Shown: positions 27,582 to 49,132, numbered from the stretch's first letter. The stretch is DNA of 64,000 nt from Bacteroidales bacterium (GCA_017552705.1 JAFZOY010000010.1:3486-67485), one strand, 5' to 3'. The notes: a model not told the origin generated them from the sequence alone. Made by a program: numbers and translations.

Positions 27582-27632
27582 GACAAAGAAAAACACAAGG
27601 TATGCCATATCAAGGCGGAGGTTTGAAAAAAT
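27582..27632 (+). repeat. Intergenic direct repeat family, copy 3
   Basis: The sequence is gacaaagaaaaacacaaggTATGCCATATCAAGGCGGAGGTTTGAAAAAAt. Confidence 0.85.
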
Positions 27633-27726
27633 CATGAATTTCTTAGAAATTTTTTGCCTCGCCAAAAAAAATTATTACATTTGTCTAATAAAATTATTAG
27701 ATACACCTAATAAAATTTTTAACACA

Positions 27727-28914
27727 ATGAAAAGAACTATATATCAAACGGTTATAAATCGTTTAAAAGAGCCAAGAAAGTTTATCCAAGTATTGTTTGG
27801 ACCTCGTCAGGTGGGAAAAACAACGTTGATGACACAGGTTCTCGAAGAAATTGAAACGCCATATCTGTTTGTTACCGCCGACGATATTGCAGGCATGGAC
27901 GATGCGTGGTTGCATACGGTTTGGAATCGAGCCCGTGTGGAACAAAGCGAGAAAAAAGACCAAGATTTTTTATTGGTTATTGACGAGGTTCAAAAGATTC
28001 AGAATTGGAGCGAGATAGTAAAAAAGGAATGGGATGCCGATACGCAAAGCCATCGGCCGATAAAAGTTGTTTTACTTGGCTCCTCGTCGTTGTTGATTCA
28101 AAAAGGTTTGTCGGAATCACTGGCTGGGAGGTTTGAGCAGATGTATATCACCCACTGGTCGTATGCCGAAATGAAAGAAGCATTTGATTTTTCGATTGAC
28201 CAGTATATTATGTACGGTGGCTATCCCGGGGCTGCTTCGCTTGTCGGCGATGAACAGCGATGGCGTAGTTACGTGCGTCAGTCGTTGGTGGAAACAACTC
28301 TGTCGAAGGATATTCTTATGATGACACAGGTGAACAAGCCCATTCTGCTTCGACGGCTGTTTGACATTGGTAGTTCGTATTCCGCACAAATTCTTTCGCT
28401 GAACAAAATTCAAGGGGAGCTGAACGAGAAAGGAAATCTTACGACTTTGGGCGGGTATCTCGACCTTTTAAACGCGGCAGGTCTGTTGTGCGGTCTCGAC
28501 AAATATGCGGGAAGCATTATCTACCAACGTGCCTCGAAACCTAAACTGCAAGTTCACAATAATGCCTTGATGAGCATTCAAAGTATGAAAACTCTTGCAG
28601 AAGCAAAAGCAGACACAACATATTGGGGACGTTTGGTGGAATCAGCAGTTGGCACACATTTGTTAAATTATTCGAAGACAGAAGGTTATGAATTATATTA
28701 TTGGAACGAAAATTCCAAGGAAGTGGACTTTGTGTTGAAATGTGGAGAAAAAATTGTGTCGCTGGAAGTAAAAAGCGGTGTTGATTCCCAAAACGAAGGC
28801 ATAGCCTTGTTTCAAGGGAAATTTCATCCATCGTTGTCACTTGTGATTGGTACGGACGGAATACCATTTGAAAAGTTTTTCACAATGAATCCCTTAGAGC
28901 TTTTTAAAATTTAG
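27727..28914 (+). CDS. AAA-family ATPase with a C-terminal DUF4143-like (restriction-endonuclease-like) domain
   Basis: The start was refined to ATG 27727 (MKRTIYQTV). Walker A is LFGPRQVGKTTL and Walker B is LLVIDEVQK. The C-terminal segment YYWNENSKEVDFVL…EVKSG is typical of this widespread family. Confidence 0.8.
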   Translation: MKRTIYQTVINRLKEPRKFIQVLFGPRQVGKTTLMTQVLEEIETPYLFVTADDIAGMDDAWLHTVWNRARVEQSEKKDQDFLLVIDEVQKIQNWSEIVKKEWDADTQSHRPIKVVLLGSSSLLIQKGLSESLAGRFEQMYITHWSYAEMKEAFDFSIDQYIMYGGYPGAASLVGDEQRWRSYVRQSLVETTLSKDILMMTQVNKPILLRRLFDIGSSYSAQILSLNKIQGELNEKGNLTTLGGYLDLLNAAGLLCGLDKYAGSIIYQRASKPKLQVHNNALMSIQSMKTLAEAKADTTYWGRLVESAVGTHLLNYSKTEGYELYYWNENSKEVDFVLKCGEKIVSLEVKSGVDSQNEGIALFQGKFHPSLSLVIGTDGIPFEKFFTMNPLELFKI

Positions 28915-28945
28915 CCTTGGTACAAAAGAGAATAAAATTTGTAGA

Positions 28946-28991
28946 GCAAAAAAACAAAGGTATGCCAAATCAAGGCAGAGGTTTGAAAAAT
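28946..28991 (+). repeat. Intergenic direct repeat family, copy 4
   Basis: The sequence is gcaaaaaaacaaaggTATGCCAAATCAAGGCAGAGGTTTGAAAAAt. Confidence 0.85.
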
Positions 28992-29083
28992 TGTTTTCAA
29001 AAATTGAATTACTTCAGTTTTCTGTAACTAAACAACGCCTTTGCTTATATATTTGCATTGGTTACAATAGAAAGGAATCACTT

Positions 29084-29494
29084 ATGGGACGAATACTTGC
29101 TATAGATTACGGAACGAAGCGCACGGGAATTGCGGTCACCGACCCGTTGCAACTCATTGCCAACGCGTTGACAACAGTGCGAAGCTGCGATTTGATACAA
29201 TTTCTTACGGACTATTTTGCCAAGGAACAAGTTGACCACGTGGTGATTGGTATGCCCACAACGCTCCGTAACGAACCCTCGGAAAATGCAAAACATGTGA
29301 AAATTTTTGAGAAACAGTTTCAAAAAACATTTCCCAATATGCCCATCAGCGAGATGGACGAACGATTTACCTCAACGATTGCACATCAGGCGATGCTTGC
29401 CGGCGGCATGAAGAAAAAAGACCGCCAAAACAAAGAAGTTGTCGATAGCATCAGCGCCACTATCATTCTGCAATCGTATATGGAACGAAGATAA
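29084..29494 (+). CDS. ruvX: Holliday-junction resolvase-like nuclease RuvX (YqgF)
   Basis: The start was refined to ATG 29084. MGRILAIDYGTKRTGIAVTD and DERFTS…A motifs are present, and the protein is 136 aa. Confidence 0.9.
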   Translation: MGRILAIDYGTKRTGIAVTDPLQLIANALTTVRSCDLIQFLTDYFAKEQVDHVVIGMPTTLRNEPSENAKHVKIFEKQFQKTFPNMPISEMDERFTSTIAHQAMLAGGMKKKDRQNKEVVDSISATIILQSYMERR

Positions 29495-29497
29495 ATA

Positions 29498-29908
29498 TTA
29501 ATTCCTTGAAGCTATTTCATCTAAAATTTTGATTTTTTCTTCATTAGATAAATCTATAAAACCGAGGGTAAAACAATTGAAATATTTCTCATAATATTTT
29601 TGTTCTTGCAACATAGACATTGTCATCCAATCTTTGTTTAATTTTTGGTCCTCAAGTTCATAGAATTCATTAGATCTCAATGTGCATACAGAAGTATTTT
29701 GCTTTAAATCCACTCTGTATGAATAAACTAACAATTGATACTTATTATCTATATATCTTAAAAATTCTATAACTCCATAATCTTGCGTCTTGCTATAAAT
29801 TGTCACAAGAGTTTCTTTTTGAGCAACATTCATAGATACAAAATCTTGTTTATATAGAGAGCATGAATGTAGAAAAAACACAATATTTAATAATAATAAC
29901 TTTTTCAT
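29498..29908 (-). CDS. Hypothetical lipoprotein (136 aa)
   Basis: It has a lipobox-type signal, MKKLLLLNIVFFLHSCS. The coding sequence is very AT-rich. Confidence 0.5.
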   Translation of the reverse strand: MKKLLLLNIVFFLHSCSLYKQDFVSMNVAQKETLVTIYSKTQDYGVIEFLRYIDNKYQLLVYSYRVDLKQNTSVCTLRSNEFYELEDQKLNKDWMTMSMLQEQKYYEKYFNCFTLGFIDLSNEEKIKILDEIASRN

Positions 29909-29977
29909 TTTAATACTTTATATGATTGAGATGCCAAAACATTGTAAATTCCCGTGTTATAAATGGCATATTCGATT

Positions 29978-30757
29978 TCATTCTACCCATATTGCTTGGG
30001 TTGCATTGCAAGAAAAAATATTCTCATTGCTATTAGTGTCATATACGAAACACTGATTTCCTTTTTTATATAAAATATATTTATCGTCGTTTGAATATAA
30101 TGGACAACAGCCTTCAATATAAAAATCCTTAAATTCATTTTTGTGTATATTATATTCCACAATAGTCGGAAGCTCTTTTATTTTCCTCCAATCATATTTT
30201 CCAACAATTCTCTCACAGATTATTTTTTCCCTATCAGAAGAAAAAGATGGATTAAAATATCCTATTTTATAACCTTTATCAATTTGTTTTGGTTCAAGAA
30301 TAGAGAAAATATTTCCATTGCTGTCTTTGGTTTCTACAAATCCCATATTGTTTAATATCTGTATTTTATTACAATATAAATCCTCTATATTTGTTATAGA
30401 AAGATGCTCTAATTCAGAATTAGAAACTCTATAGAAATATTTATTTTCTATTATTGTGTCATTTTTTAATGTCACATCATTTTCGTCAAATTCCACAATA
30501 ATTTCGGATAAAAATTTATTTTGATAAAAGAAATAATAATCATTCTTTTTGTATAATGTTACAATATATTTGTTGTCGTGATGGTAACAACATCCAAATT
30601 CCCAGAGTTCAAGATTATTGATCGAAATTATCTCTTTTTGAATATTGCGCTCCATATCATAAAATATAAGTTTATCGTTATCAGATATGACAATGTTTTG
30701 TAAAGCAATAGCATTTTGTATAAACAAAGTAAAAAATATTACAAATAGTACTCTCAT
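29978..30757 (-). CDS. Hypothetical secreted protein (259 aa)
   Basis: It has a signal peptide MRVLFVIFFTLFIQNAIA. The protein is N/K/I/Y-rich with paired Cys (GCCYHH, GCCPLY) and is very AT-rich. Confidence 0.5.
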   Translation of the reverse strand: MRVLFVIFFTLFIQNAIALQNIVISDNDKLIFYDMERNIQKEIISINNLELWEFGCCYHHDNKYIVTLYKKNDYYFFYQNKFLSEIIVEFDENDVTLKNDTIIENKYFYRVSNSELEHLSITNIEDLYCNKIQILNNMGFVETKDSNGNIFSILEPKQIDKGYKIGYFNPSFSSDREKIICERIVGKYDWRKIKELPTIVEYNIHKNEFKDFYIEGCCPLYSNDDKYILYKKGNQCFVYDTNSNENIFSCNATQAIWVE

Positions 30758-30760
30758 AAT

Positions 30761-30958
30761 TTATTGTATTAAAGTACTTCCCTTTTTTGGACAGTTAAAT
30801 TTTAATTTATAGAGTATTTTAGAAAGAAGAAGTTCGTTTGTATTATCTGGGTAATCCATAAGATACAACTGATTTAACGAATCGTAGAAATAGCGATATA
30901 TAAAATTCATTGCACGATATTTATTTTCTCCTTTTTGTTGGTTTTGTATCATATTCAT
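30761..30958 (-). CDS. Possible small protein (65 aa, or 49 aa from ATG 30910)
   Basis: The ORF overlaps the end of the upstream gene by 38 nt unless the internal Met (MNFIYRYFYD) is used. I recognised no family. Confidence 0.25.
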   Translation of the reverse strand: MNMIQNQQKGENKYRAMNFIYRYFYDSLNQLYLMDYPDNTNELLLSKILYKLKFNCPKKGSTLIQ

Positions 30959-31943
30959 GCCAAAAGTTTAAACTTATAATGGCGTCACAATTATTATGAT
31001 TTCCTATGTCTAAGGTTATAAATTCATCACACGTCGTTGGATATGCTTTTTCAAGGCAACGATTCCTTTCTCCTTTAAAAAAGGATCCTTTTGAAACACC
31101 AGGAGCAGAAAAGTCAACTCGTTTCCCCTTAAAATCGAAATTTCCTCGACACGATTTAAATATACAATTCAAATAATCCGCTTCATATTCGTTTAGAAGC
31201 AGATTATTATCTATACCCATTCTGTCGAAATTATCTATTACTTCTTTGGGTATATCGTCAAACGATATTCTTGAAGATTCTTTTGTTATAGTGTCCTTAA
31301 TCACAGAGTAATTCTTAATTCCTTCCTTATCCTCATAGAGGATTTGCACATCATTTTCGAAAACACAATAATAACACTGATTTTTTTCTCCAGTGTAAGC
31401 GAAGATAAATTTGGGAGATAATCGTAATATGGTGGATAGAACTTCTCTACTCATAGAGAAGTTTACCGAATCCCATTTCATATAAAACATTTGAGCGACC
31501 CCGACTGGTGTTTCCCCTTGTTTTTTATATATCCAACAATTATGTGTGGAGAAAAATTTCTTATTTCTGCTTGAGTAAAGTATTATTCGGTTATAGAAAT
31601 CATCTATCGAACTAAAATACAATTTTTTACAGTCTAAAGACAATTCATTGTCAATGCATTCAATTACAGAACAGAACAGAGAATTAAGTTCCTCTACGGG
31701 CGTTTTAATTCGACAATTTTTTTTCGCCCTTTTAATAGCAATTTTGTTTTTTTGGTGAATATTATAATCTGCATAATCATCTATTACGACAACCTTATAG
31801 GGACTTTTGTTATATCCAAATATGGCTTTCTTTGGAGGAAGTGTAATTTTTACTTGTTGTGCAAAACAAAATTCAGTAAATATGGAAAGAACAGCAAGTA
31901 ATATTAAGACTCTTGTTTTTCTTTGTGGGTTTAAATGTATCAT
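30921..31943 (-). CDS. Hypothetical secreted protein (~340 aa)
   Basis: The start was refined to ATG 31943 (MIHLNPQRKTRVLILLAVLSIFTEFCFAQQ, a signal peptide). It is AT-rich with no recognisable domain. Confidence 0.5.
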   Translation of the reverse strand: MIHLNPQRKTRVLILLAVLSIFTEFCFAQQVKITLPPKKAIFGYNKSPYKVVVIDDYADYNIHQKNKIAIKRAKKNCRIKTPVEELNSLFCSVIECIDNELSLDCKKLYFSSIDDFYNRIILYSSRNKKFFSTHNCWIYKKQGETPVGVAQMFYMKWDSVNFSMSREVLSTILRLSPKFIFAYTGEKNQCYYCVFENDVQILYEDKEGIKNYSVIKDTITKESSRISFDDIPKEVIDNFDRMGIDNNLLLNEYEADYLNCIFKSCRGNFDFKGKRVDFSAPGVSKGSFFKGERNRCLEKAYPTTCDEFITLDIGNHNNCDAIISLNFWHEYDTKPTKRRK

Positions 31944-32037
31944 ACATGTATCGAGTTTAGTTATTCCACACAAATATACTGCATTATTTCTTTTTTCGAC
32001 TTGTTTTCATACATTTGCACGTTCAAAAACAAAAATT

Positions 32038-34137: not shown

Positions 34138-34223
34138 TCCCCACGTAGATAACGTTTTCTTTCGAGAAAATCAGTATATTTGCAGATAAGAAAATTTGTG
34201 CACTAACGTTCTTTTTTGTGGCG

Positions 34224-35138
34224 ATGGAAGATTTTTTTTCAAAAACAAATTATACGATTCAAGATATTCTGGCACTTATCGAGAATGAAATTGAAGAGTC
34301 AATCCATCTTGAATTCAAATCAGCGGGAGCTATCGGGAAATGGGACAGCAAGAAAGCGGAAATGACCAAAGATGTGGCGGCTTTCGCCAACTCCGACGGA
34401 GGAATCATTGTGTACGGACTTTCGGAATGCAACCACAAGGCGAGCGCGCTGTCGTTCATCGACGGGACCATTTTCACAAAAGAATGGATCGAACAAGTGC
34501 TAAATTCAGGCATTCAGCAGAAAATCAATGGGTTACAAATCTTCCCTATTCGCAACAACGGCAACATTGAGCAATCAATCTACGTGGTAAAAATCCCCAA
34601 AAGTTTCAACACGCCACACATGAGCAAAGACCGGAAATTCTATCGTCGATACAATTTCGAGGCGGTTCCTATGGAAGAATACGAAATTCGTGAACTCTAT
34701 AACCGAAAGAGCCACAGTAAGTTGCTTATTCAGGGATATTATCTTGGGAAATTCAGCGAAAACGCTGAAACGCAAACGTACCATTTCCTTGCCCAGATTG
34801 CCAACGAATGCGCACGGCCAGAATCGTCGTACAAACTAAATATCTACATCAACTGTCCTGATTTAGACAAAATGTCAATCACATGGGAACAAAACGAAAA
34901 TTTCTCGTTCACGATGATTGCGCCCAACAAAGTAAAACTTTCAGCAACAGGAAGCATTCCCATCTACACAGATGAATGTCTTGATATGGCGCGGTTTTCG
35001 TTGGAAATTCCCAACAAAATTTTTGACAAAATCACCGAAGAAATGTCAATAGACATGATTCTCCTCTATTCAGACGGAAAAAACGAGTTTCATATTTCAA
35101 ACGAAACAGTGCGGAAACGACTGATTTCATTTAACTAA
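34224..35138 (+). CDS. AlbA_2 (Schlafen-like divergent AAA/DNA-binding) domain protein with an uncharacterised C-terminal half
   Basis: The N-terminus ESIHLEFKSAG…EMTKDVAAFANSDGGIIVYGL is the hallmark of the AlbA_2 domain. ATG 34224 is preferred over GTG 34218. Confidence 0.6.
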   Translation: MEDFFSKTNYTIQDILALIENEIEESIHLEFKSAGAIGKWDSKKAEMTKDVAAFANSDGGIIVYGLSECNHKASALSFIDGTIFTKEWIEQVLNSGIQQKINGLQIFPIRNNGNIEQSIYVVKIPKSFNTPHMSKDRKFYRRYNFEAVPMEEYEIRELYNRKSHSKLLIQGYYLGKFSENAETQTYHFLAQIANECARPESSYKLNIYINCPDLDKMSITWEQNENFSFTMIAPNKVKLSATGSIPIYTDECLDMARFSLEIPNKIFDKITEEMSIDMILLYSDGKNEFHISNETVRKRLISFN

Positions 35139-39328: not shown

Positions 39329-39360
39329 AAGCTGTGCGGACGTTCCGTGCAGCTTTTTTT
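39329..39360 (+). terminator. Rho-independent terminator after glyQS
   Basis: The sequence is aaGCTGTGCGGacgttCCGTGCAGCttttttt. It forms a 9-bp stem including two G-U pairs, followed by a T7 run. Confidence 0.6.
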
Positions 39361-39450
39361 ATGCTGTAAAGAAAATTTGTTTGCTATTTATTTAGGATAG
39401 AATATTTTATTTAACTGATATACAGTATTTTATATTTTTTATTCTACAAA

Positions 39451-39479: not shown

Positions 39480-39536
39480 GAATGGTTGTATGTTTGCAAC
39501 GAAATGATAAACGAATTGAAACAGAATCAAGAGAAT

Positions 39537-40475
39537 ATGACAAAAATTGCTACAAATATTACGGAATTGATAGGTGGCACGCCCCTTTTGGAGCTTTCAA
39601 AGACGGAAAAACAATTAAAGCTGAAAGCTACCGTTTTGGCAAAATTGGAGTGCTTGAATCCTGGAAGAAGCGTGAAAGACCGCGTGGGTTTGGCTCTGAT
39701 TGAAACAGCAGAGAGAAAAGGACTCATAAATAAAAACACAGTAATAATAGAACCAACAAGCGGAAATACAGGGATTGGTTTGGCAATTACCGCCGCAACA
39801 CGTGGCTATCGCTTGATTTTGACTATGCCCGATTCCATGAGTATAGAACGGAGAAGTCTGCTCAAAGCGCTTGGCGCGGAACTTGTTTTAACGCCTGCCT
39901 ACGAAGGTATGCCGGGTTCTATCCGCAAAGCAAAAGAGCTGGCGGCTGAAATTGGTAATGCGTTTATTCCGCAACAATTTGCAAATCAAGCAAATCCCGA
40001 GGCTCATTACAAAACAACTGGTCAGGAAATTATTCGTGACACCGACGGAAAAGTCGATATTTTCGTTGCTGGTGTTGGTACGGGCGGTACGGTTACTGGT
40101 GTAGGACTTGCACTGAAGGAATACAATCCCAATATAAAAATTGTCGCTGTTGAGCCATACGATAGTTCTGTCCTTTCGGGGCATAAACCAGGCCCGCATA
40201 AATTGCAAGGCATCGGAGCGGGATTTATTCCCGAAGTGCTCGACACCAATATTTACGATGAAATCTTCAGAGTGAAGAACGACGATGCGTTCGAGGCTTC
40301 AAGAAACTTTGCGTCGCAGGAAGGCGTGTTGGTGGGAATTTCATCGGGGGCGGCTTTACATGCGGCTATTGAAATCGCAAAACGTGCGGAAAATCGTGGA
40401 AAAACCATAGTCGCCCTCTTGCCTGATTCGGGAGAACGATATTTGTCAACAACACTTTTTTCAAACTTAAAATAG
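39537..40475 (+). CDS. cysK: Cysteine synthase (O-acetylserine sulfhydrylase family; CysK versus CysM type not resolvable by eye)
   Basis: The start was refined to ATG 39537 ([20 protein letters not shown]). The PLP-lysine motif is [16 protein letters not shown], with [10 protein letters not shown] and a [10 protein letters not shown] loop. Confidence 0.92.
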
Positions 40476-40482
40476 AACAACC

Positions 40483-40695
40483 ATGGCAAAAATTACAGTA
40501 AACGGTCAAGAACAAGAAGTTACATTGCCTTTGTCGCTGATAGAACTGATGACAAACAACAATGTGGAACAACCAGAAATGGTAAGCGTGCAAATCAACG
40601 AAGAGTTTGTGGAACGTGAGAATTTTCCTAAAACACAAATAAAGGACGGCGATGAAGTTGATTTCCTTTATTTTATGGGTGGTGGAGCATTTTAA
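40483..40695 (+). CDS. ThiS/MoaD-family sulfur-carrier protein with a C-terminal GG followed by two extra residues (…YFMGGGAF)
   Basis: This 70-aa beta-grasp-like protein (MAKITVNGQEQEV…DGDEVDFLYFMGGGAF*) lies 7 nt after cysK and just before an E1-like enzyme. Confidence 0.8.
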   Translation: MAKITVNGQEQEVTLPLSLIELMTNNNVEQPEMVSVQINEEFVERENFPKTQIKDGDEVDFLYFMGGGAF

Positions 40696-40719
40696 GTATT
40701 GATTAAAAAACAAAAAACT

Positions 40720-41535
40720 ATGTTTGATTTTACCGAAGAAGAACTTAAACGGTATTCTCGCCACATTCTTTTGAAAGATGTCGGTGTTGAAGGACAAGAG
40801 AAAATTCGCGAGGCGAAGGTTCTCGTGATTGGTGCCGGCGGACTTGGCGCTCCGGTTGCGTTGTATCTGGCTGCGGCAGGTGTCGGAACAATCGGAATAG
40901 TTGATGGCGACGTGGTTGATTTGAGCAATCTGCAACGGCAGATTATCCACTCCACTGCCGATATTGACAAACCCAAGGTGCAATCCGCCAAAGAAACAAT
41001 ACAAGCAATAAATCCCCACGTGAAAGTTCGGGAATACAAGACGTTTCTTGAAGCAAGCAACGCTCTGGATATTATCAAGGAATATGATTTTGTGGTTGAC
41101 GGAACGGATAATTTCCCTGTAAAATTCCTCATAAACGACGCCTGCATTATGGCAGGAAAGCCATTCAGCCATGGTGGAATTTTGCGTTTTGAAGGACAAA
41201 CATTCACGCATGTGCCAGGAACCGCCTGCTATCGTTGCGTGTTCCCCACTCCACCCCCGCCAAACCTTGTCCCCACGTGTTCGCAAGCGGGTGTACTTGG
41301 TGCGATTGCTGGTATGCTTGGCACAATTCAAGCTGCCGAAGTCTTGAAATACATCACTGGCGTGGGTGAATTGCTTACCGATAAGTTATTGACTTTCAAC
41401 GCAAAAACAATGGATTTCAGAAAGGTTGCCGTTAAAAAACGTGAAAAATGCGCTATATGTGGCGATCAACCTACAATCCACACTCTCATTGATTACGAAC
41501 AAGCTGCGTGCGACCTTGCTTCGCACGGCAAATAA
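40720..41535 (+). CDS. HesA/MoeB/ThiF-family E1-like adenylyltransferase
   Basis: RYSRHILLKDVGVEGQEKI, VLVIGAGGLGAPVALYLAAAGVG, DLSNLQRQ and the zinc motifs CYRC…CAIC are present. ATG 40720 is preferred over TTG 40699. Confidence 0.9.
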   Translation: MFDFTEEELKRYSRHILLKDVGVEGQEKIREAKVLVIGAGGLGAPVALYLAAAGVGTIGIVDGDVVDLSNLQRQIIHSTADIDKPKVQSAKETIQAINPHVKVREYKTFLEASNALDIIKEYDFVVDGTDNFPVKFLINDACIMAGKPFSHGGILRFEGQTFTHVPGTACYRCVFPTPPPPNLVPTCSQAGVLGAIAGMLGTIQAAEVLKYITGVGELLTDKLLTFNAKTMDFRKVAVKKREKCAICGDQPTIHTLIDYEQAACDLASHGK

Positions 41536-41547
41536 AACAATACGACT

Positions 41548-42027
41548 ATGGCAGAAAATAAAAAATTATCGCTTATCGCCTTCTCAGGCGAATTTGACAA
41601 ATTAACGGCTGTATTCACGCTGGCCACGGGTGCTGCGGCTGTAGGATACGAGGTGAACATTTTCTTCACTTTCTGGGGGCTTGATGCCATTAAACAGAAA
41701 AAAGGAAGAAGTTTTGTCGGCGGCACATTCCTGACGAAAATATTCGGATTTATGATGGGAGGATTGCATGCCACACCAACGAGCCGATTCAATTTCTTCG
41801 GTTTTGGACCATGGATTTTCCGTAAACTTATGAAAAAGAACAACGTTGCCACACTCGAAGAACTTGTTGATGCGGCTCACGCTTTGGGCGTAAACCTTTA
41901 TGCGTGCGAAATGGCTATGCACGTGCTTGGCCTTGAGCAGAAGGATTTCATACACGAAGTAAAAGACACTCTTGGCGTTGCCACGTTCCTTGAACTATCG
42001 GAAGGCGGACGAACAATGTTCATTTAG
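41548..42027 (+). CDS. DsrE/DsrF-like (DrsE_2-type) sulfur-relay family protein
   Basis: KLSLIAFSGEFDKLTAVFTLATGAAAVGYEVNIFFTFWGL and a conserved Cys in YACEMAM are present. The 159-aa size is typical of the family. Confidence 0.7.
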   Translation: MAENKKLSLIAFSGEFDKLTAVFTLATGAAAVGYEVNIFFTFWGLDAIKQKKGRSFVGGTFLTKIFGFMMGGLHATPTSRFNFFGFGPWIFRKLMKKNNVATLEELVDAAHALGVNLYACEMAMHVLGLEQKDFIHEVKDTLGVATFLELSEGGRTMFI

Positions 42028-42088
42028 TAAATTAAAAATTAAAAAAGGATACTACTTACTTATTCATAATTCATAACTCTTAACTCCT

Positions 42089-42310
42089 ATGACTCACACA
42101 TTGGATATAACAAAAGAACATTGCCCAATGACGTTTGTAAAAACCAAACTGAAATTGGCTCAAATAGCCGACGGCGATATTTTGGAAGTGCTTCTTACTG
42201 AAGGCGAACCATTGAACAACGTTCCCCGTTCGGCAACAGAACAAGGTTATAAAGTACTGTCGGTCAACCACGTTGACGGACAAATCCATAAAGTAACAAT
42301 TCAGAAATAA
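42089..42310 (+). CDS. tusA: TusA/SirA-family sulfurtransferase
   Basis: The 73-aa protein has the CPxP-type active-site context LDITKEHCPMTFVKTK and ILEVLLTEGEPLNNVP. Confidence 0.85.
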   Translation: MTHTLDITKEHCPMTFVKTKLKLAQIADGDILEVLLTEGEPLNNVPRSATEQGYKVLSVNHVDGQIHKVTIQK

Positions 42311-42709
42311 ATGGAAATAATAGTAACGGAATCGGCATATCGTGACGTTCTTGCACAGGCGAAAAAGGATGCTCCGCTTGAATCGTGCGGCTATTTGATG
42401 GGACCCGACAAAAACACGGTCACTGTCAATTATCCGATGAAAAATGTGGACGAGTCGGCCGAACATTTCAGTTTCGACCCGAAAGAGCAATTTGCAGCTG
42501 TGAAATACGCCCGCCAAAACGGACTTACAATCGTAGGCAATTGGCACAGCCACCCTGCCACGCCGTCAAGACCTTCGGCGGAGGATATACGTCTCGCCCT
42601 TGATTCCAACATTCTCTATTTCATACTCTCGCTTGCCGAACAAACACCTGTGTTTAACGCATTTGTGATTTCAAACGGCGAAGTGCGGGAGAAAATCAAC
42701 ATTCGATAA
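42311..42709 (+). CDS. JAMM/MPN+ (Mov34) metalloprotease
   Basis: The E…(ESCGYL) and HSHPATPSRPSAEDI segments give the full JAMM motif H-x-H-x7-S-x2-D. The start codon abuts the tusA stop. Confidence 0.88.
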   Translation: MEIIVTESAYRDVLAQAKKDAPLESCGYLMGPDKNTVTVNYPMKNVDESAEHFSFDPKEQFAAVKYARQNGLTIVGNWHSHPATPSRPSAEDIRLALDSNILYFILSLAEQTPVFNAFVISNGEVREKINIR

Positions 42710-42754: not shown

Positions 42755-44194
42755 ATGTCAGACAACAACATTCAACGCAGTATTACGACTGCTACGGCTC
42801 GAAAATTAGCAAATACCACCAAAACCCCACCACAGATGGGTTCCATAACACCTCGTCTGTTGCTGAAACTTTTACCATGGGTGCAAGTGGAAAGCGGTAC
42901 ATATCGAGTAAATCGTACAAAAGTGGAATTAAAAAAGGCGGAACGTATTGAAATTCAATATTTTGACGGCGTACCAAGTTTTTCCGCGAAAAATCTTCGC
43001 GCTATTCCGTTGTTTTCGCACATCGACCAAGAAATTGTTACCGATTTGGCACGAAATTTTGTACCTGTCGAAGTCAAGCGTGGTAAAAATCTGATTACGC
43101 AAGGCAAGGACAAGCAAAAATTCTTTATCGTTGCAAGTGGTCAAGCCGAGGTCATAAGCGCAGGAATCCACGGAGAAGAATTGCGTATAGCTCTTTTGGG
43201 TGCCGGCGAATACTTCGGGGAATCGGATTTGCTGAGTGCCGCAAATTCCACGGTAACGGTTCGTTCCATCACAAACTCAGTTTTCCTGCAATTGGAAACG
43301 CCTGTGCTTGAGAAACTTATAAAAGAACGTCCTAATTTCCGTGAACAGTTCAACAATGCCGTTGACGACCATTTGCGTCTGAAAGCGACGGTAAACGACC
43401 ACGGTGAAAAACACATTGACTTGGTAAGTGGTCATGAAGAGGACAATATTATTCCTGAAACCTACATTGACTACGACGAAAATCCTACCGAATACTCGCT
43501 CAATACATTACAGACGGTTGTTCGCGTCCATACACGTGTAAGCGACCTTTACAATGCTCCCTACAATCAATTGGAACAACAATTGCGACTTTCTATCGAA
43601 AGTATTAAGGAGCGTCAGGAATGGGAACTCATAAACAACAAAAAATTTGGACTTTTGGCACAAGCAAATCCTGCTTACAAAATAAGTGCACGCTATGGCG
43701 CCCCCACTCCCGACGACCTTGACGAACTTCTTTCGCTTGTGTGGAAGGAACCAGCATTTTTCATTGCAAATCCTCGTGCCATTGCCGCTTTTGAACGTGA
43801 ATGCACATGGCGTGGCGTTCCACCTGTAAGCATTGATTTGTTTGGCACAAAAGTGATTACGTGGCGTGGTGTTCCTATCGTTCCATCCGACAAAGTGGAA
43901 GTTAAGGGACAATATCTTACAAACCGTGGCGTAGGCACAACAGAAATTATTCTGGTACGTGTTGGCGAAAAGGAACAAGGCGTTGTGGGTTTGCACCAAT
44001 CGGGAATCCCTGGCGAAATCGCCCCGTCGTTGTCGGCTCGTTTGATGGGATTGGACCAATACGGTGTAACAAGTTATTTGCTGACCAAATATTTCAGCCT
44101 TGCAAGCTTGACCGACGATGCCATTGCCGTTTTGGAAAATGTGGAAGTTGGCTATTATCATGATTATCAACACAGAAATCAAATTGAAAAATAA
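42755..44194 (+). CDS. Family 2B encapsulin nanocompartment shell protein (HK97 fold with an inserted cNMP-binding-like domain)
   Basis: The N-terminus TARKLANTTKTPPQMGSITPRLLLKLLPWVQVESGTYRVNR matches what I recall of family-2 shells such as Synechococcus SrpI. So does the core ETYIDYDENPTEYSLNTLQTVVRVHTRVSDLYN…GAPTPDDLDELLSLVWKEPAFFIANPRAIAAFERECTWRGVPP…ITWRGVPIVPSDKV. Residues ~78-195 form a CAP_ED-like insertion (FFIVASGQAEV…GEYFGESDLL). Confidence 0.85.
   Translation: MSDNNIQRSITTATARKLANTTKTPPQMGSITPRLLLKLLPWVQVESGTYRVNRTKVELKKAERIEIQYFDGVPSFSAKNLRAIPLFSHIDQEIVTDLARNFVPVEVKRGKNLITQGKDKQKFFIVASGQAEVISAGIHGEELRIALLGAGEYFGESDLLSAANSTVTVRSITNSVFLQLETPVLEKLIKERPNFREQFNNAVDDHLRLKATVNDHGEKHIDLVSGHEEDNIIPETYIDYDENPTEYSLNTLQTVVRVHTRVSDLYNAPYNQLEQQLRLSIESIKERQEWELINNKKFGLLAQANPAYKISARYGAPTPDDLDELLSLVWKEPAFFIANPRAIAAFERECTWRGVPPVSIDLFGTKVITWRGVPIVPSDKVEVKGQYLTNRGVGTTEIILVRVGEKEQGVVGLHQSGIPGEIAPSLSARLMGLDQYGVTSYLLTKYFSLASLTDDAIAVLENVEVGYYHDYQHRNQIEK
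42986..43339 (+). other. cNMP-binding-like (CAP_ED) domain inserted in the encapsulin shell protein
   Basis: LFSHIDQEIVTDLARNF…GKNLITQGKDKQKFFIVASGQAEV…LGAGEYFGESDLLSAANSTVTVRS is present. FGE is conserved, but the canonical R-[ST]-A of the phosphate-binding cassette reads N-S-T. Confidence 0.7.
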
Positions 44195-45807
44195 TGTACG
44201 GAAACGAATTAGATAATGCACAACCCAATATTCCAGAATTGGGTGAGATTCCGAAGTGGACTGTTCCGATAGAAACTCCAAATCCAGACGGGATAGTCTC
44301 TCCATTGCCTCCTTCAACCTTTACTGAGAGTGCGGATTTATCGGGGCTTCCACTATCGGGAACTTTGCTGCCGGGCGATTTATCGGATGCCGACAAGACT
44401 TTGTTCCGCAATGTTGTGGAAAAGTTTTTCCCTAATTCCATGGCAAAGGAACAGGCATTGTCGCTGATGAACGTTAATTCTGACGATTCGGATGCTAGCA
44501 GCAAAAAATGTCTGCTCAACGACAATGGTTTCGGCATTGGTATCCCCGAAATGGAACTTGTGAAAAATCTTCGATACGAAGATTCCGATGTCATCAACAG
44601 CGACGCAATACGACAGCAGTTCCCCATTCTTCATCAAAAGGTGAACGGAAAAGACCTTGTTTGGTTCGACAATGGTGCAACCACACAAAAACCACTTCGC
44701 GTTATTGACGGTTTGAGCGAATTTTACAAGCACGACTACTCCAACATTCACCGTGGAGCTCATACGCTTGCCGCCCGCTCCACCGACCAATACGAAGGTG
44801 CACGCGAAAAAGTGGCACGCTTCATAAACGCTCCCTCTTCCGAAAATATTATTTTCGTGCGTGGGACAACCGAAGGTATCAACTTGGTTGCGAACACGTT
44901 TGGTAGGAAAAATCTGCTTGCAGGCGACAACGTAATTGTTTCCACTCTTGACCACCATGCCAACATTGTGCCGTGGCAGCAAATCTGCAAGGAAGTCAAG
45001 GCGGAACTGCGTGCCATTCCAATTGACAAAAACGGTGATCTAATTTTGCCAGAACTGGAACGTCTTATTACACCACGCACAAAATTCATTTCGGTTGGAC
45101 ACGTAAACAATACGTTCGGCACGGTGAACGACGTTCGTACAATCGTGAAAATTGCCCATTCACACGGGATTCCGGTCCTGCTCGACGGCGCGCAGTCAAT
45201 TGCACATACCAAAATTGACGTGCAGGAACTAGACTGCGATTTCTTTGTTTTTTCAGGGCATAAGATTTATGGTCCGTCGGGAATCGGTGTCGTGTATGGC
45301 AAGAAGGAAGTTTTGAGCCAACTTCCGCCATGGCAAGGTGGTGGCAACATGATAAAGGACGTTACCATTGAAAAGACTGAGTTCAACGAACCGCCTGCTC
45401 GTTTCGAGGCTGGTACGCCAAACATTGCCGATGCCATCGGATTGGGCTATGCACTCGATTTTGTTCAAAGCGTCGGAATTCAAAACATCGAACGACACGA
45501 ACATGATTTGACCGAATATGCACGTGAGCAAATCGGCAAGATTCAAGGCATTACTATTATGGGAAATCCAAAAAATCGTGTAAGCGTGGTTTCGTTTGAT
45601 GTACACGGAATACCTGCCCCGCAAGTCGGCCAAATGCTTGACAAAGAAGGAATTGCTGTCCGTGCAGGACACCATTGCGCCCAACCTGCTTTACGTGCCT
45701 TGGGCTACGAAATGTCGGTGCGCCCTACGTTTGCGGTATATAACACCCGTGCTGAAGTTGACCGATTGGTCGCCGCTTTGCAAAAGATTGTCGGAACAAG
45801 CAAATAA
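44194..45807 (+). CDS. SufS-type (group II) cysteine desulfurase with a ~135-aa N-terminal extension (putative encapsulin cargo-loading domain)
   Basis: The core starts near IRQQFPILHQKVNGKDLVWFDNGATTQKP. The PLP lysine lies in FFVFSGHKIYGP and the catalytic Cys in RAGHHCAQP. The N-terminal 135 aa are P/S/D/L/G-rich with no fold-like pattern. The ATG overlaps the shell stop (TAATG at 44192-44196). Confidence 0.9.
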   Translation: MYGNELDNAQPNIPELGEIPKWTVPIETPNPDGIVSPLPPSTFTESADLSGLPLSGTLLPGDLSDADKTLFRNVVEKFFPNSMAKEQALSLMNVNSDDSDASSKKCLLNDNGFGIGIPEMELVKNLRYEDSDVINSDAIRQQFPILHQKVNGKDLVWFDNGATTQKPLRVIDGLSEFYKHDYSNIHRGAHTLAARSTDQYEGAREKVARFINAPSSENIIFVRGTTEGINLVANTFGRKNLLAGDNVIVSTLDHHANIVPWQQICKEVKAELRAIPIDKNGDLILPELERLITPRTKFISVGHVNNTFGTVNDVRTIVKIAHSHGIPVLLDGAQSIAHTKIDVQELDCDFFVFSGHKIYGPSGIGVVYGKKEVLSQLPPWQGGGNMIKDVTIEKTEFNEPPARFEAGTPNIADAIGLGYALDFVQSVGIQNIERHEHDLTEYAREQIGKIQGITIMGNPKNRVSVVSFDVHGIPAPQVGQMLDKEGIAVRAGHHCAQPALRALGYEMSVRPTFAVYNTRAEVDRLVAALQKIVGTSK

Positions 45808-45832: not shown

Positions 45833-46987
45833 ATGTCAATAGGAATTGATACAAAATGTTTGCATTTGGAAGACGGAGACGACCTTGACGCCAATTATGG
45901 CGCCGTGAGCTATCCGATTTACCAGACAGCTACATACGCCCATTTTGGCGTTGGGAAAAGCACTGGCTACGATTATAGCCGTTTGCAAAACCCCACCCGC
46001 AAGCAACTTGAAAAAATAATTGCTTCGCTTGAAAATGGCATCGACGCTCTTGCCCTAACGTCGGGAATGGCGGCAATTTCCTTGCTGATGGAGTTATTCC
46101 GCCAGAACGACCACATTATTATTGAATCGGATTTGTATGGAGGAAGCACACGGCTTTTCAGAACGGTTTCCGAGAAAAACGGATTATCGTTCTCGAGTGT
46201 TGACTGCACAAACATTGAAGCCGTTGAAATGTGCATAACAAACAATACCAAGGCTATTTACATTGAAACGCCTACCAATCCGATGATAAATGTTGCCGAC
46301 ATCAGGGCGTTGGCGGAACTTGCCCATCGGAACAGACTTTTACTGATTGTTGATAACACATTTTTGTCGCCCTATTTCCAAAATCCTCTTGATTTGGGTG
46401 CGGATATTGTGGTGCATAGCGGCACAAAATTTCTGGGCGGCCACAACGACACACTGGCGGGATTCATTGTAACCAACAATCAAAAAATAAGCGACGACTT
46501 GCGTTTTCTGATTAAAACCACTGGTACAGGACTTGCTCCGTTCGACTGCTGGCTGTTGATTCGTGGCGTGAAGACGCTCGGCATTCGTATGAAAAAAGCA
46601 CAGGAAAACGCGCTCAAAATAGCAGAATGGCTGAAAACACAACCCATTGTCACCAAGGTTATCTACCCAGGATTACCCGAACATTCGGGACATTCAATTT
46701 TGAAAAAACAGGCACGCGGATTCGGTTCAATGCTCACGTTCCAAGTGCAGAAAAAAGAGTTCGCCTGTAGTTTTCTTGAAAAAGTGAAGCTGATAAAATT
46801 TGCTGAAAGTTTAGGTGGTGTCGAAACGCTTGTGACATACCCTATTACACAAACCCACGCCGAAGTTCCGCCAGAGGAACTCGCTCGTAACGGAATAACT
46901 GACTGTACGTTACGCTTGTCTGTCGGCATTGAGGACAGTGACGATTTGATTGCGGAAATGGAAAAAGTTTTTAATGAATTAAAATGA
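45833..46987 (+). CDS. Cys/Met-metabolism PLP enzyme (cystathionine gamma-lyase/beta-lyase/gamma-synthase family)
   Basis: The start was refined to ATG 45833 (MSIGIDTKCLH). YSRLQNPT and the PLP-lysine motif HSGTKFLGGHNDTLAG are present. At 384 aa it fits MetB/MetC/CGL better than MetY. Confidence 0.88.
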   Translation: MSIGIDTKCLHLEDGDDLDANYGAVSYPIYQTATYAHFGVGKSTGYDYSRLQNPTRKQLEKIIASLENGIDALALTSGMAAISLLMELFRQNDHIIIESDLYGGSTRLFRTVSEKNGLSFSSVDCTNIEAVEMCITNNTKAIYIETPTNPMINVADIRALAELAHRNRLLLIVDNTFLSPYFQNPLDLGADIVVHSGTKFLGGHNDTLAGFIVTNNQKISDDLRFLIKTTGTGLAPFDCWLLIRGVKTLGIRMKKAQENALKIAEWLKTQPIVTKVIYPGLPEHSGHSILKKQARGFGSMLTFQVQKKEFACSFLEKVKLIKFAESLGGVETLVTYPITQTHAEVPPEELARNGITDCTLRLSVGIEDSDDLIAEMEKVFNELK

Positions 46988-47031
46988 TAATTTAGAAAAA
47001 CATCATTTTAAAAAAAACTTACGTTGAAAAA

Positions 47032-48231
47032 ATGGCAGAACGAAATCTTGATTTTGATACTATTGTAAACCGTTGCGACACTGATTGCCTGAAATACGAT
47101 TTTGCAAAGGAACGGGGGCTTCCTGCCGACGTGTTGCCCCTTTGGGTTGCCGATATGGATTTTAGAACGTCGTCGTATATTGAAGATGCTCTTATTGAGC
47201 GAGTTATGCACGGTGTATTTGGCTATAGCGATTCAAAGGAGCGATATTTCAATGCAGTTGCCTCGTGGATGGAAAAACAGCACCATTGGCGTGTGCACCC
47301 GTCGTGGCTTGTAAAAACGCCAGGTGTAGTGTGTGCTTTGGCTATGGCTGTAAAAGCTTTTACACACGAAGGCGACAAGGTGTTAATCCAACAACCAGTC
47401 TATTACCCCTTTACAGGAGTGATTGAAAGTAATCGCCGCATAGTGGTAAGCAACGACCTGATTTTAGGTGACGACAATCGCTATCATATTGATTTTAAGG
47501 ATTTTGAAAATAAAATACGGCAACATGACATAAAACTTTTTTTGTTGTGTAGTCCACACAATCCTGTCGGCAGGGTTTGGAGTCGCGACGAATTGACCAA
47601 AATTGGCGAAATCTGCCTACGTTACGGTGTGATTGTCGTTAGTGACGAAATCCACAACGATTTTGTGTTCCGTGGCGAACATACTGTTTTTGCAAATATT
47701 AGCAAAGAATTTGCCGACATAAGCGTCACATGCACCGCCCCGAGCAAGACGTTCAACCTCGCTTCGTTGCTCGTTTCCAACATTTTTATACCAAATAGGA
47801 ATCTACGATGTGCCTTCCGCAATCAATATGCTGCGGCGGGAATGAGCCAAATCAGCGCATTGGGGCTTGTTGCCTGTGAAGCGGCGTACAACCACGGACA
47901 AGAATGGTACATGGCAATGAAAACGTATGTTGCTGAAAATATAGCATTTACACGCAACTATATAGAGAAAAATATTGCCGATGTACGTATGATTGACTTG
48001 GAGGGAACGTATCTTGTGTGGCTTGACTTTAGGAAATTGGGACTAACAAATGCCCAATTGGAAGATTTGATTATAAATCACGCACACTTGTGGTTGGACA
48101 GCGGAAGCATTTTTGGAAAAACTGGTGATGGTTTTCAACGGATAAATGTCGCCTGTCAACGTTCCACTTTGCTCGAAGCACTCAAACGAATCGAGGCGGT
48201 TGTCAAAAATGTAGATTCTTCGAAATTATAA
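47032..48231 (+). CDS. MalY/PatB-family C-S lyase (class I aminotransferase fold)
   Basis: FDTIVNRCDTDCLKYDF is the PatB-type N-terminus. LWVADMDF, the PLP-lysine motif APSKTFNLASL and a C-terminal QRINVACQRSTL are present. Confidence 0.85.
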   Translation: MAERNLDFDTIVNRCDTDCLKYDFAKERGLPADVLPLWVADMDFRTSSYIEDALIERVMHGVFGYSDSKERYFNAVASWMEKQHHWRVHPSWLVKTPGVVCALAMAVKAFTHEGDKVLIQQPVYYPFTGVIESNRRIVVSNDLILGDDNRYHIDFKDFENKIRQHDIKLFLLCSPHNPVGRVWSRDELTKIGEICLRYGVIVVSDEIHNDFVFRGEHTVFANISKEFADISVTCTAPSKTFNLASLLVSNIFIPNRNLRCAFRNQYAAAGMSQISALGLVACEAAYNHGQEWYMAMKTYVAENIAFTRNYIEKNIADVRMIDLEGTYLVWLDFRKLGLTNAQLEDLIINHAHLWLDSGSIFGKTGDGFQRINVACQRSTLLEALKRIEAVVKNVDSSKL

Positions 48232-48241: not shown

Positions 48242-49132
48242 ATGAACAAAATAAACATATTAAAGAAAAATGTTGACATTCTTTCGGAATTAACCGAAGC
48301 AGAAAAAACAATGAAGACCGAAGGCGGAAAACAACCTTCAATAAAGGCAGTGGAAACCATTATTGAACTGCTGAAACAAATCATGTTTCCTGGTTATTTT
48401 GGGACAGAAATCAGAAACAATGACAGCAGGCACTATCACATAGGCATTAGCATGGAACTGTTGGAGATGGAGCTGAAAGAACAAATTCTATTGAGTTTTA
48501 TAGGCTTCAAAGGCGAAAAAGTTCAGGAAACCGAGATAGATGAGATAACACTACGTTTTATTGACACCATTCCTGAAATAAAACGTGTGCTTTACACCGA
48601 CATCGAGGCAATGTATAACTCCGATCCTGCGGTAACGGCCTACGGCGAGATTATTTTCTGCTATCCAATTGTACAAGTTATGATTCATTACCGTGTTGCA
48701 CACGCATTGCTGCAACTTGGCGTGCCGGTGTTGCCTCGGATTATTTCGGAAATGGCCCATTCAAAAACAGGCATTGACATTCATCCCGGGGCGCAAATTG
48801 GAGAATATTTTTCAATCGACCACGGAACAGGTGTGGTTATTGGCGAAACGTGTGTAATTGGCAACCACGTCACTCTGTATCAGGGCGTTACATTGGGAGC
48901 AAAAAAATTTACGTTTAACGAAAACGGACAACCGGTAAACGTGCCACGTCACCCCATAATTGAAGATAACGTCACCATATATTCCAATTCATCTATACTT
49001 GGTCGTATCACAATTGGGCACGATACCGTGGTTGGTGGTAACATTTGGCTCACAGAAAGCGTGAAACCATATTCAAAGATAATCCAGCAAAAAGCTGTGA
49101 CATCTACATTCACCGACGGCGCCGGAATATAA
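48242..49132 (+). CDS. cysE: Serine O-acetyltransferase (long N-terminal form)
   Basis: YRVAHALLQLGVPVLPRIISEMAHSKTGIDIHPGAQIGEYFSIDHGTGVVIGETCVIGNHVTLYQGVTLG gives the SAT core and left-handed hexapeptide repeats. Confidence 0.9.
   Translation: MNKINILKKNVDILSELTEAEKTMKTEGGKQPSIKAVETIIELLKQIMFPGYFGTEIRNNDSRHYHIGISMELLEMELKEQILLSFIGFKGEKVQETEIDEITLRFIDTIPEIKRVLYTDIEAMYNSDPAVTAYGEIIFCYPIVQVMIHYRVAHALLQLGVPVLPRIISEMAHSKTGIDIHPGAQIGEYFSIDHGTGVVIGETCVIGNHVTLYQGVTLGAKKFTFNENGQPVNVPRHPIIEDNVTIYSNSSILGRITIGHDTVVGGNIWLTESVKPYSKIIQQKAVTSTFTDGAGI

Follow-up and report, generated by a model that had tools for sequence, protein, structure and literature searches.

Homocysteine synthesis that depends on a protein thiocarboxylate was reportedly described in Wolinella succinogenes by Krishnamoorthy and Begley in 2011, with HcyS, HcyF, HcyD and MetY as its components. 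Here we analyze a putative relative of this system in a 64,000-nucleotide stretch of DNA from a Bacteroidales bacterium (GCA_017552705.1, JAFZOY010000010.1:3486-67485), the whole of which is referred to below as the window. An original prediction had placed a five-gene module at 40483-42709, and the five genes are present and intact at these coordinates on the + strand, encoding a ThiS-like sulfur carrier, a MoeB/ThiF-type E1 enzyme, a DsrE2B-like protein, a TusA protein and a JAMM metalloprotease. The neighbors had been predicted to be the cysteine synthase CysK, an encapsulin and a desulfurase; profile matches bear this out and these genes are intact as well. As reported for Wolinella, and as in the window, a ThiS-like carrier has one or more residues past Gly-Gly that are removed by a JAMM protease. 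[quoted passage not shown] Unlike the Wolinella system, the window has a DsrE2B-like/TusA pair built into the operon, its sulfur-source genes encode an encapsulin plus a desulfurase in place of a sulfite reductase, and its PLP partner is CysK, followed by a cystathionine gamma-synthase/lyase-family (CGS-like) enzyme and PatB, and not MetY.

Several other described systems share parts of this gene set. In the CysO/CysM/Mec+/MoeZR system of Mycobacterium tuberculosis (PMC3227635) a cysteine synthase receives its sulfide from the carrier thiocarboxylate, the carrier is restored by a JAMM-type hydrolase, and the carrier, protease and synthase genes are clustered as they are in the window. However, CysO has a free GG end whereas the window carrier is masked by a tail, the mycobacterial E1 MoeZR carries a rhodanese domain whereas the window E1 has none and is accompanied by TusA and DsrE instead, and CysM is specific for O-phosphoserine whereas the window synthase is CysK-type with a serine acetyltransferase-like gene in the cluster. 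A masked di-glycine is also known from the QbsE/QbsD (thioquinolobactin) and CxnE/CxnF (chuangxinmycin) systems, QbsE ending in GG-CF as compared to GG-AF in the window, and these clusters also encode a JAMM protein with an E...HxH...S..D motif that is proposed to unmask the carrier (PMC5925218). These systems serve secondary metabolites, whereas the window genes belong to primary cysteine and methionine metabolism and have no tailoring enzymes among them. Judged by sequence, the carrier, E1 and JAMM genes of the window (the triad) are of the HcyS/QbsE/CysO kind, differ from the mycobacterial pathway in both the CysM and the MoeZR component, and fit the Wolinella type best.

The remaining genes of the module resemble the DsrE3A/DsrE2B/TusA relay clusters of M. 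cuprina (PMC4175335) and Hyphomicrobium sHdr (PMC11094781), in which a dsrE-family gene and tusA are adjacent and each product has a conserved active-site cysteine. Those clusters serve dissimilatory sulfur oxidation (sHdr/Dsr) and have a CPxP motif in TusA, whereas the window belongs to a rumen anaerobe with an assimilatory or storage-related context and has CPMT; their DsrE2B, the group nearest to the window protein, has no demonstrated activity. The genes that follow the module resemble family 2 desulfurase encapsulin operons (SrpI of S. elongatus, PMC8049743; A. baumannii, PMC10836720; census, PMC8346489) in having a SrpI-like HK97-fold shell, a SufS-type desulfurase as cargo (presumed cargo in the window) with an unmatched N-terminal extension, and a serine acetyltransferase in the operon. 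They differ in that the shell is of family 2B with a cyclic nucleotide (cNMP) binding domain while the studied systems are 2A, in that the accessory is a DsrE2B-like protein plus TusA rather than rhodanese, and in the attached thiS-E1-JAMM triad and cysK (MetY-like in relatives). Rhodanese is the conserved sulfur-acceptor accessory of the studied 2A operons, about 50% of which have it, and is known from proteobacterial ones (PMC10836720). The census counts 1,462 desulfurase operons of family 2A and 199 of family 2B, and for the latter gives serine acetyltransferase and rhodanese as accessories (PMC8346489); the recovered parts of its supplements name only generic "sulfur metabolism, cofactor synthesis, amino acid synthesis" neighbors and contain no table of ThiS, ThiF, JAB, TusA or DsrE neighbors for family 2. 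Desulfurase encapsulins are widespread and have recently been shown to store elemental sulfur, with recovery of the stored sulfur being explicitly an open question for which rhodanese is proposed as the agent (PMC10836720). Our literature searches found no paper that links encapsulins with TusA or DsrE or that describes a thiS-E1-dsrE-tusA-JAMM operon, and the DsrE-TusA link to encapsulins appears to be undescribed.

Results

A masked sulfur carrier within a probable sulfur amino acid gene cluster

The module is part of eleven tightly spaced + strand genes at 39.5-49.1 kb, between a hairpin that follows glyS and ftsX (49396), with every assignment supported by Pfam and NCBIfam (Table 1). We regard it as somewhat probable that this is one same-strand gene cluster for sulfur amino acids that couples a protein-thiocarboxylate pathway to a desulfurase encapsulin. 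The module is far beyond chance, since its catalytic residues are invariant in 109-155 orthologues and its genes are kept in 160 related loci.

The carrier gene ends in GGT GGT GGA GCA TTT TAA, which reads G66 G67 G68 A69 F70 stop, so that the 70-residue beta-grasp protein ends in FMGGG-AF. This confirms the earlier claim of a di-glycine masked by two residues. ThiS profile models stop at G68, and the closest solved structure, PDB 2K5P/3CWI (deposited as ThiS; E = 7e-14), ends in ...FLYFMGGGK. FMGGG followed by a tail is kept in 120/120 of the best database homologues (at least 67% identity) and in 116/116 orthologues from related loci (236/236), and no carrier in either set ends at a free Gly-Gly. 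The tails are 1-45 residues long and unconserved (for example CLI, A, AF, SLI, Q, SRC, AL and AR). Because every relative carries a tail, a free Gly-Gly end requires proteolysis, and the tail of the window precursor would thus have to be removed to expose Gly-Gly. The combination of a conserved core, an unconstrained tail and an always-linked JAMM gene with invariant catalytic residues fits a pro-peptide that is removed before adenylation. The analogy to QbsE/QbsD, HcyS/HcyD and CysO/Mec+ that had been drawn from the sequence holds, and is strengthened by the universal hypervariable tails and by the co-occurrence of thiS, E1 and JAMM genes in 91 of 92 loci.

These same features bear on whether the triad consists of ordinary cofactor genes (serving thiamine thiazole as ThiS/ThiF, molybdopterin as MoaD/MoeB, or tRNA thiolation as a carrier) that merely lie near sulfur genes. 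The TIGR01683 thiS equivalog model matches above its cut-off, carrier homologues that are named in public records are called "sulfur carrier protein ThiS", and MoeB (1JW9) and ThiF (1ZUD) of E. coli are the closest PDB entries to the E1. Thiamine ThiS has a free Gly-Gly end, linked thiG/thiH/thiO/thiC genes and usually a thiamine pyrophosphate (TPP) riboswitch. In contrast, the carrier described here never ends in free Gly-Gly, its JAMM gene is constantly linked, its neighbors are cysteine and methionine enzymes, and the 64-kb window contains no thiG, thiH, thiO, thiC, moaE or tRNA-thiolase gene and no TPP riboswitch by Rfam. A cofactor role is thus highly improbable, and the thiamine-pathway name "ThiS" is probably misleading for this tail-bearing, JAMM-linked carrier subgroup. 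Scarcely credible is a role as thiocarboxylate donor for a sulfur-containing secondary metabolite of the QbsE/QbsD or CxnE/CxnF type: the GG-AF tail is close to the GG-CF of QbsE and a JAMM gene is in the cluster, but neither the cluster nor ~170 related loci contain an adenylating, nonribosomal peptide or polyketide synthase, cytochrome P450 or tailoring gene, and the neighbors are primary sulfur amino acid enzymes.

The E1 enzyme and the JAMM protease

The E1 most likely starts at ATG 40720, to judge from homologues that begin at residue 8-9 of the longer, 278-residue form that would start at TTG 40699. Its ThiF domain (residues 19-251 of 278) is the only domain present, with no rhodanese domain in a Pfam scan. 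The GxGxxG nucleotide loop, four zinc cysteines in two CxxC pairs (177, 180, 251 and 254) and Cys194 are invariant in 116-120 orthologues. The JAMM gene lies four genes downstream of thiS, as predicted, with its start codon abutting the tusA stop codon (junction AAATAAATGG). The intact H-x-H-x7-S-x2-D signature that had been noted for its product is confirmed as E24...H79-S-H81-x7-S89-x2-D92, and all five residues are invariant in 109-110 orthologues.

Both enzymes have sub-threshold NCBIfam matches to protein-conjugation enzymes, the E1 matching UbaA, which activates SAMP, at 331 bits (cut-off 450) and the JAMM protein matching desampylase at 70 bits (cut-off 130). Additionally, the best solved homologue of the JAMM protein, PDB 2KKS (117 bits), is followed by P. 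furiosus JAMM1 (5LDA), and precursor tails are typical of ubiquitin-like modifiers. The triad might therefore conjugate a ubiquitin-like protein, in the manner of SAMP/UbaA/desampylase or Thermus TtuB, with the JAMM protein processing the precursor and deconjugating targets such as sulfur enzymes. We hold this to be quite improbable since all UbaA and desampylase matches fall below their cut-offs and the constant neighbors (CysK, MetY-like, serine acetyltransferase and sulfite reductase parts) are the signature of thiocarboxylate-dependent cysteine and homocysteine synthesis. Conjugation and sulfur-transfer roles are not mutually exclusive in archaea.

Linkage of the carrier triad to an encapsulin core

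Related loci were collected by an encapsulin-query scan with one genome per species, which gave 80 loci (shell identity 80-94%), and by an alignment-based DsrE-query scan of metagenomes, which gave 80 more from close rumen relatives only (81-92% identity) and no distant contexts. All loci of the first scan are from rumen or gut Bacteroidales metagenome-assembled genomes (MAGs) labeled Prevotellaceae, Bacteroidaceae, Paludibacteraceae and similar. Window proteins were mapped on the 160 loci by tblastn, and the 52 loci in which the shell gene is flanked by 8 kb or more in each direction constitute the long-flank set.

An invariant core of dsrE-tusA-enc-desulfurase emerges from this comparison. 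The dsrE and tusA genes are upstream of the shell gene in all 139 loci with at least 1 kb of upstream sequence, being adjacent to it or separated only by the JAMM gene in 134 and by a 1-2.5 kb insert in five. A shell gene follows dsrE in 128 of the 131 cases with enough downstream DNA, and the desulfurase gene directly follows enc in every locus with downstream DNA. The thiS-E1-JAMM triad forms a second set, complete in 91 of 92 loci with enough flank and present in 45 of the 52 long-flank loci. It occurs in four arrangements. In 23 loci it is interleaved with the core in the order of the window, thiS-E1-[dsrE-tusA]-JAMM-enc; in 11 it is upstream on the same strand, mostly with cysK intervening; in 24 it is immediately downstream of the desulfurase gene; and in 40 it is divergent from dsrE. 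Triad and core are nonetheless contiguous in 106 of 109 loci (27 interleaved, 64 within 400 bp and 15 with nothing but cysK or a MetY-like gene in between), and in the other three they lie 0.5-1.7 kb apart. Repeated rearrangement with contiguity preserved argues for selection on this linkage.

The five inserts between tusA and the shell gene (L110:3405-5355, also L043, L135, L137 and L151) include, in L110, two minus-strand open reading frames (ORFs) of 263 and 389 residues with no NCBIfam match. In one metagenomic locus (L156:10700-11900) the shell gene is broken into small ORFs and the JAMM gene is missing while thiS, E1, dsrE, tusA and desulfurase genes are kept, which is either a decaying copy or an assembly problem. 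A second E1-like match (~30% identity) near the triad in some loci was rejected as an unrelated TcdA-like tRNA-modification enzyme.

Outside of the encapsulin context, the order thiS-E1-dsrE-tusA-JAMM recurs in at least nine other settings in other Bacteroidota, with DsrE homologues labeled Marinilabiliales, Mariniphaga, Dysgonamonadaceae, Tannerella and Parabacteroides among others. Proteins of these encapsulin-free modules are orthologous to those of the window (E1 77%, DsrE 78%, TusA 69% and JAMM 52% identity). Two of the modules (L081, L168) are near a 778-residue sulfite/nitrite-reductase-like protein, a pair of cysK genes, and genes for a uroporphyrinogen methylase and a true MetY, three (L169, L171, L172) are divergent from a CysJ-like flavoprotein, one (L170) is followed by a serine acetyltransferase, one has a MetY-like gene inserted between thiS and E1, and two (L167, L096) stand alone. 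The 778-residue hemoprotein (L081:5448-7784, L168:1417-3753), encoded directly upstream of cysK-cysK-thiS-E1-dsrE-tusA-JAMM, has a C-terminal TusA domain and is predicted to be a reductase fused to a sulfur carrier. Conversely, the triad without dsrE-tusA lies beside siroheme genes and a thioredoxin gene in four loci (L082-L085), and the core without the triad is found in a Tannerella MAG (L166). That dsrE-tusA is interleaved in encapsulin-free carrier operons beside assimilation genes ties it to the carrier system and to sulfur assimilation, and its presence in both the carrier and encapsulin sets, which are otherwise separable, makes DsrE-TusA the one common element.

Such separability is also what the main rival explanation would lead one to expect, namely that two independent systems share one sulfur island, with DsrE-TusA serving the encapsulin only (export or import of sulfane sulfur, with general acceptors), the triad taking free sulfide, of which the rumen has plenty, straight onto the acyl-adenylate for cysteine and homocysteine synthesis, and co-location reflecting shared regulation of sulfur amino acid genes and no passing-on of sulfur. 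The triad without dsrE-tusA in L082-L085, and the core without the triad in L166 and in 7 of the 52 long-flank loci, both count in its favor, as do reconstitutions from the Begley laboratory in which carrier acyl-adenylates are said to react with sulfide in vitro. We nevertheless judge it unlikely. In at least nine contexts that lack an encapsulin, the dsrE-tusA pair is part of the thiS-E1-...-JAMM operon and thus does not accompany encapsulins alone. The triad has kept its contiguity with the core across four rearrangements (106/109 loci), and the E1 is without the rhodanese domain that otherwise supplies sulfur.

With regard to the original prediction, the view of the five genes as one module survives in part, as the same order exists elsewhere, but in this clade dsrE-tusA belongs to the invariant core while thiS-E1-JAMM is a mobile triad. 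The combination with an encapsulin had been called unusual; it is in fact the norm in rumen Bacteroidales (45/52 long-flank loci). A proposed check of co-occurrence gave a mixed outcome, with the encapsulin link frequent and selected, but with the module present without encapsulin or desulfurase in at least nine contexts and the core also present without the triad.

The DsrE2B-like protein and TusA

The closest PDB entry to the DsrE-like protein is 2QS7 (96 bits), followed by 3PNX, and its single cysteine, Cys120, aligns with a cysteine of both. Entry 2QS7 is S. solfataricus DsrE2B SSO1126 (PMC4175335). Cys120 is invariant in 155/155 orthologues, as are Cys12, Pro13 and Thr15 of the TusA motif in 155/155 orthologues. 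TusA is known to act in MoaD sulfuration and DsrE3-TusA relays are known as well (PMC11094781, PMC4175335). There is no sign of a link to dissimilatory sulfur oxidation, as neither the window nor related loci contain hdr, dsr or lbpA genes and the neighbors are assimilatory.

Encapsulin, desulfurase and amino acid enzymes

The desulfurase has an N-terminal extension of ~135 residues that is rich in Pro, Ser, Asp and Glu and matches no family. The cargo-desulfurase model NF041166 matches only the catalytic part, at 707 bits (cut-off 800). None of the eleven cluster proteins scanned has a rhodanese domain.

The CysK neighbor scores 289 bits with the cysM model, below the cut-off of 394, and the PDB entries it matches best are of the CysK type, among them 2Q3B (M. 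tuberculosis CysK1). By analogy, CysK is a candidate user of the carrier thiocarboxylate. The window contains no MetY-like gene, the divergent O-acetylhomoserine/O-acetylserine sulfhydrylase-like gene that is the commonest PLP partner in the clade; among the long-flank loci MetY-like genes are present in 44/52 and cysK in 30/52. The CGS-like and patB genes (45833-48231) lie between the desulfurase and cysE-like genes in the window only, and relatives have no orthologue at that place. In the closest relatives (L001-L003, L005 and L007) a cysE-like orthologue directly follows the desulfurase gene. Going by their sequences, the CGS-like enzyme and PatB may offer a two-step route from cysteine to homocysteine in the window, instead of a MetY-like enzyme.

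Layout of the cluster and other features of the window

Intergenic gaps in the cluster are 0-61 nt, with the encapsulin and desulfurase genes overlapping by one base where the desulfurase start overlaps the enc stop codon. The box upstream of cysK, TATGTTTG, fits TAnnTTTG, the Bacteroides -7 promoter consensus, and is a candidate promoter only. A scan of 39.2-49.5 kb gave 11 terminator-like matches compared with 11.8 expected, which is chance level, and no convincing + strand terminator between cluster genes; sigma-70 promoter matches from this region are uninformative for Bacteroidetes. An Rfam scan of the whole window found two tRNAs only, with no TPP or S-adenosylmethionine riboswitch or other RNA near the cluster, and so offers no RNA-based clue to cluster regulation.

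Table 1. Genes and sequence signals of the sulfur cluster in the window
Feature	Position	Strand	Evidence and remarks
Terminator-like hairpin with T-run, 3' of glyS	39331-39362		Sequence reading
Possible Bacteroidetes-type -7 promoter box TATGTTTG	39489..39496	+	Sequence reading; ~40 nt before cysK ATG
cysK, O-acetylserine sulfhydrylase, CysK type	39537..40475	+	TIGR01139 449 bits (cut-off 351); stops 7 nt upstream of thiS
ThiS/MoaD-family beta-grasp sulfur-carrier precursor, 70 residues	40483..40695	+	PF02597 44.6 bits; TIGR01683 62 bits (cut-off 37)
Codons GCA TTT, Ala69-Phe70 tail masking Gly-Gly; predicted JAMM cleavage product	40687..40692	+	DNA reading
MoeB/ThiF-type E1 adenylyltransferase, 271 residues	40720..41535	+	PF00899 285 bits
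DsrE2B-like putative sulfurtransferase, single cysteine Cys120	41548..42027	+	PF13686 137 bits
TusA-family sulfur carrier, motif Cys12-Pro-Met-Thr	42089..42310	+	PF01206 75 bits
JAMM/MPN+ metalloprotease (Prok-JAB), 132 residues	42311..42709	+	PF14464 89 bits
Family 2B encapsulin shell protein (enc), inserted cNMP-binding domain	42755..44194	+	NF041163 557 bits (cut-off 400); PF19307 372 bits; PF00027 55 bits
SufS-type cysteine desulfurase, presumed encapsulin cargo	44194..45807	+	PF00266 480 bits; TIGR01979 556 bits
Cystathionine gamma-synthase/lyase-family (CGS-like) PLP enzyme	45833..46987	+	PF01053 478 bits
PatB-family C-S lyase (cystathionine beta-lyase type)	47032..48231	+	TIGR04350 449 bits (cut-off 340)
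Serine O-acetyltransferase-like (CysE/EpsC type), last same-strand cluster gene	48242..49132	+	TIGR01172 156 bits, NF041874 145 bits, both just below cut-off

Elsewhere in the window, a tRNA gene at 60707-60779 (+) is overlapped at its 3' end by an ORF for a 537-residue large serine recombinase (60739-62352, -), with a second resolvase at 62674-63306; from ~60 kb GC content rises to 0.50 and the AT skew is negative. The region 60707-63306 resembles the border of an element that has inserted at a tRNA gene. A stretch at 24000-32000 has a GC content of 0.28-0.35 versus ~0.42 and may be a foreign or defence islet; it contains genes for a PD-(D/E)XK nuclease (25280-26497) and an AAA_14/DUF4143 ATPase (27634-28914), as well as four ORFs without a Pfam match (24474-25265, 27022-27570, 29978-30757 and 30921-31973). 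A protein with a Schlafen/AlbA_2 domain is encoded between comEC and argH (34218-35138). Lastly, a 1131-residue protein (7641-11036, -) combines Reg_prop/Y_Y_Y sensor repeats with a C-terminal SpoIIE/PP2C phosphatase and not the usual kinase plus AraC output.

Discussion

We favor, with moderate confidence, a reading in which the window encodes a thiocarboxylate pathway of the HcyS/CysO/QbsE type, with the DsrE2B-like protein and TusA replacing rhodanese as a shared hub to the encapsulated desulfurase. By analogy to characterized homologues, and in keeping with the tail and linkage data, the JAMM protease would first trim Ala-Phe from the ThiS-like precursor to expose Gly-Gly, upon which the rhodanese-less E1 would adenylate the carrier C-terminus at Gly68. 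Persulfidated TusA, the DsrE2B-like protein or both would then turn the acyl-adenylate into a thiocarboxylate in the role that a rhodanese domain has in MoeZR and Uba4, as suggested by the interleaved operons together with the known role of TusA in MoaD sulfuration and known DsrE3-TusA relays. The sulfane sulfur would be derived from the SufS-type desulfurase, or from a store within the 2B shell, and would exit as a small molecule to be caught at or near the shell by DsrE/TusA. This step is suggested by the invariant adjacency within the core, where DsrE/TusA would take the place of the rhodanese of proteobacterial desulfurase-encapsulin operons. Alongside the observed gene identities, motifs, tails and linkage, we infer that sulfur flows from shell to carrier.

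The later steps are likewise modeled on characterized systems. CysK would use the thiocarboxylate with O-acetylserine provided by the CysE-like enzyme, and in most relatives a MetY-like sulfhydrylase, present in addition or instead, would use O-acetylhomoserine. After an S-to-N acyl shift the same JAMM protease would hydrolyze the adduct of carrier and amino acid, freeing cysteine or homocysteine, and in the window the CGS-like enzyme and PatB may take cysteine on to homocysteine.

A number of observations weigh against this scheme. Each step is a prediction from the genes. The 160 loci counted all belong to a single narrow clade, and their counts therefore do not represent independent events. 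The triad is absent within 8-10 kb of the core in 7 of the 52 long-flank loci which, together with modules that exist elsewhere without an encapsulin, means that the coupling is not obligatory. The adjacent PLP enzyme is CysK-type and not the O-phosphoserine-dependent CysM that uses CysO. The DsrE2B of M. cuprina reacted with none of six sulfur compounds and took nothing from DsrE3A or TusA (PMC4175335). The one solved desulfurase shell, of family 2A, has pores of no more than 6 A, too narrow for proteins and even for glutathione, and the enzyme inside it is active in the absence of an acceptor. A protein relay thus cannot reach such a cargo directly, and sulfur would have to leave in the form of a small species unless the 2B shell is different. 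The original prediction of TusA and DsrE as a bridge from the desulfurase to the carrier therefore receives divided support: it fits the synteny, with DsrE-TusA common to two separable gene sets, but the nearest studied homologue is inert in vitro and pores of this size bar proteins. Finally, taking sulfur out of cysteine only to make cysteine again is circular if the shell has no storage role. If the shell stores elemental sulfur when cysteine is plentiful (PMC10836720), and if the relay and carrier return this sulfur to amino acids when needed, the apparent circularity is removed.

A possible extension of the favored scheme, which we put forward only tentatively, is that the DsrE2B-like protein and TusA constitute a dedicated exit relay that docks on the 2B shell, is perhaps gated by the cNMP domain of that shell, and passes stored sulfane sulfur to the E1-activated carrier. 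Sulfur would then move from cysteine to store to thiocarboxylate and back to cysteine or homocysteine with no free sulfide. If true, this would define for the first time a route by which sulfur stored in an encapsulin is remobilized, and would assign the DsrE2B group its first function. If the coupling is false, the locus is still a clean new example of the HcyS/QbsE type and a correction of the public "ThiS" naming.

This operon family provides concrete, conserved candidates for the recovery of sulfur from encapsulin shells. A DsrE2B-like protein and TusA are found where rhodanese would be expected, and the masked ThiS-like carrier, together with the E1 and JAMM protease that act on it by prediction, is a plausible acceptor. 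Consequently, the open question of how encapsulin sulfur is remobilized becomes directly testable, and the biochemically orphan DsrE2B group gains an assimilatory context. The locus also suggests that DsrE-TusA may stand in for the rhodanese domain of a MoeZ-type E1, and would extend thiocarboxylate-dependent synthesis of cysteine and methionine to abundant rumen Bacteroidales, where the supply of sulfur amino acids matters for the host animal.

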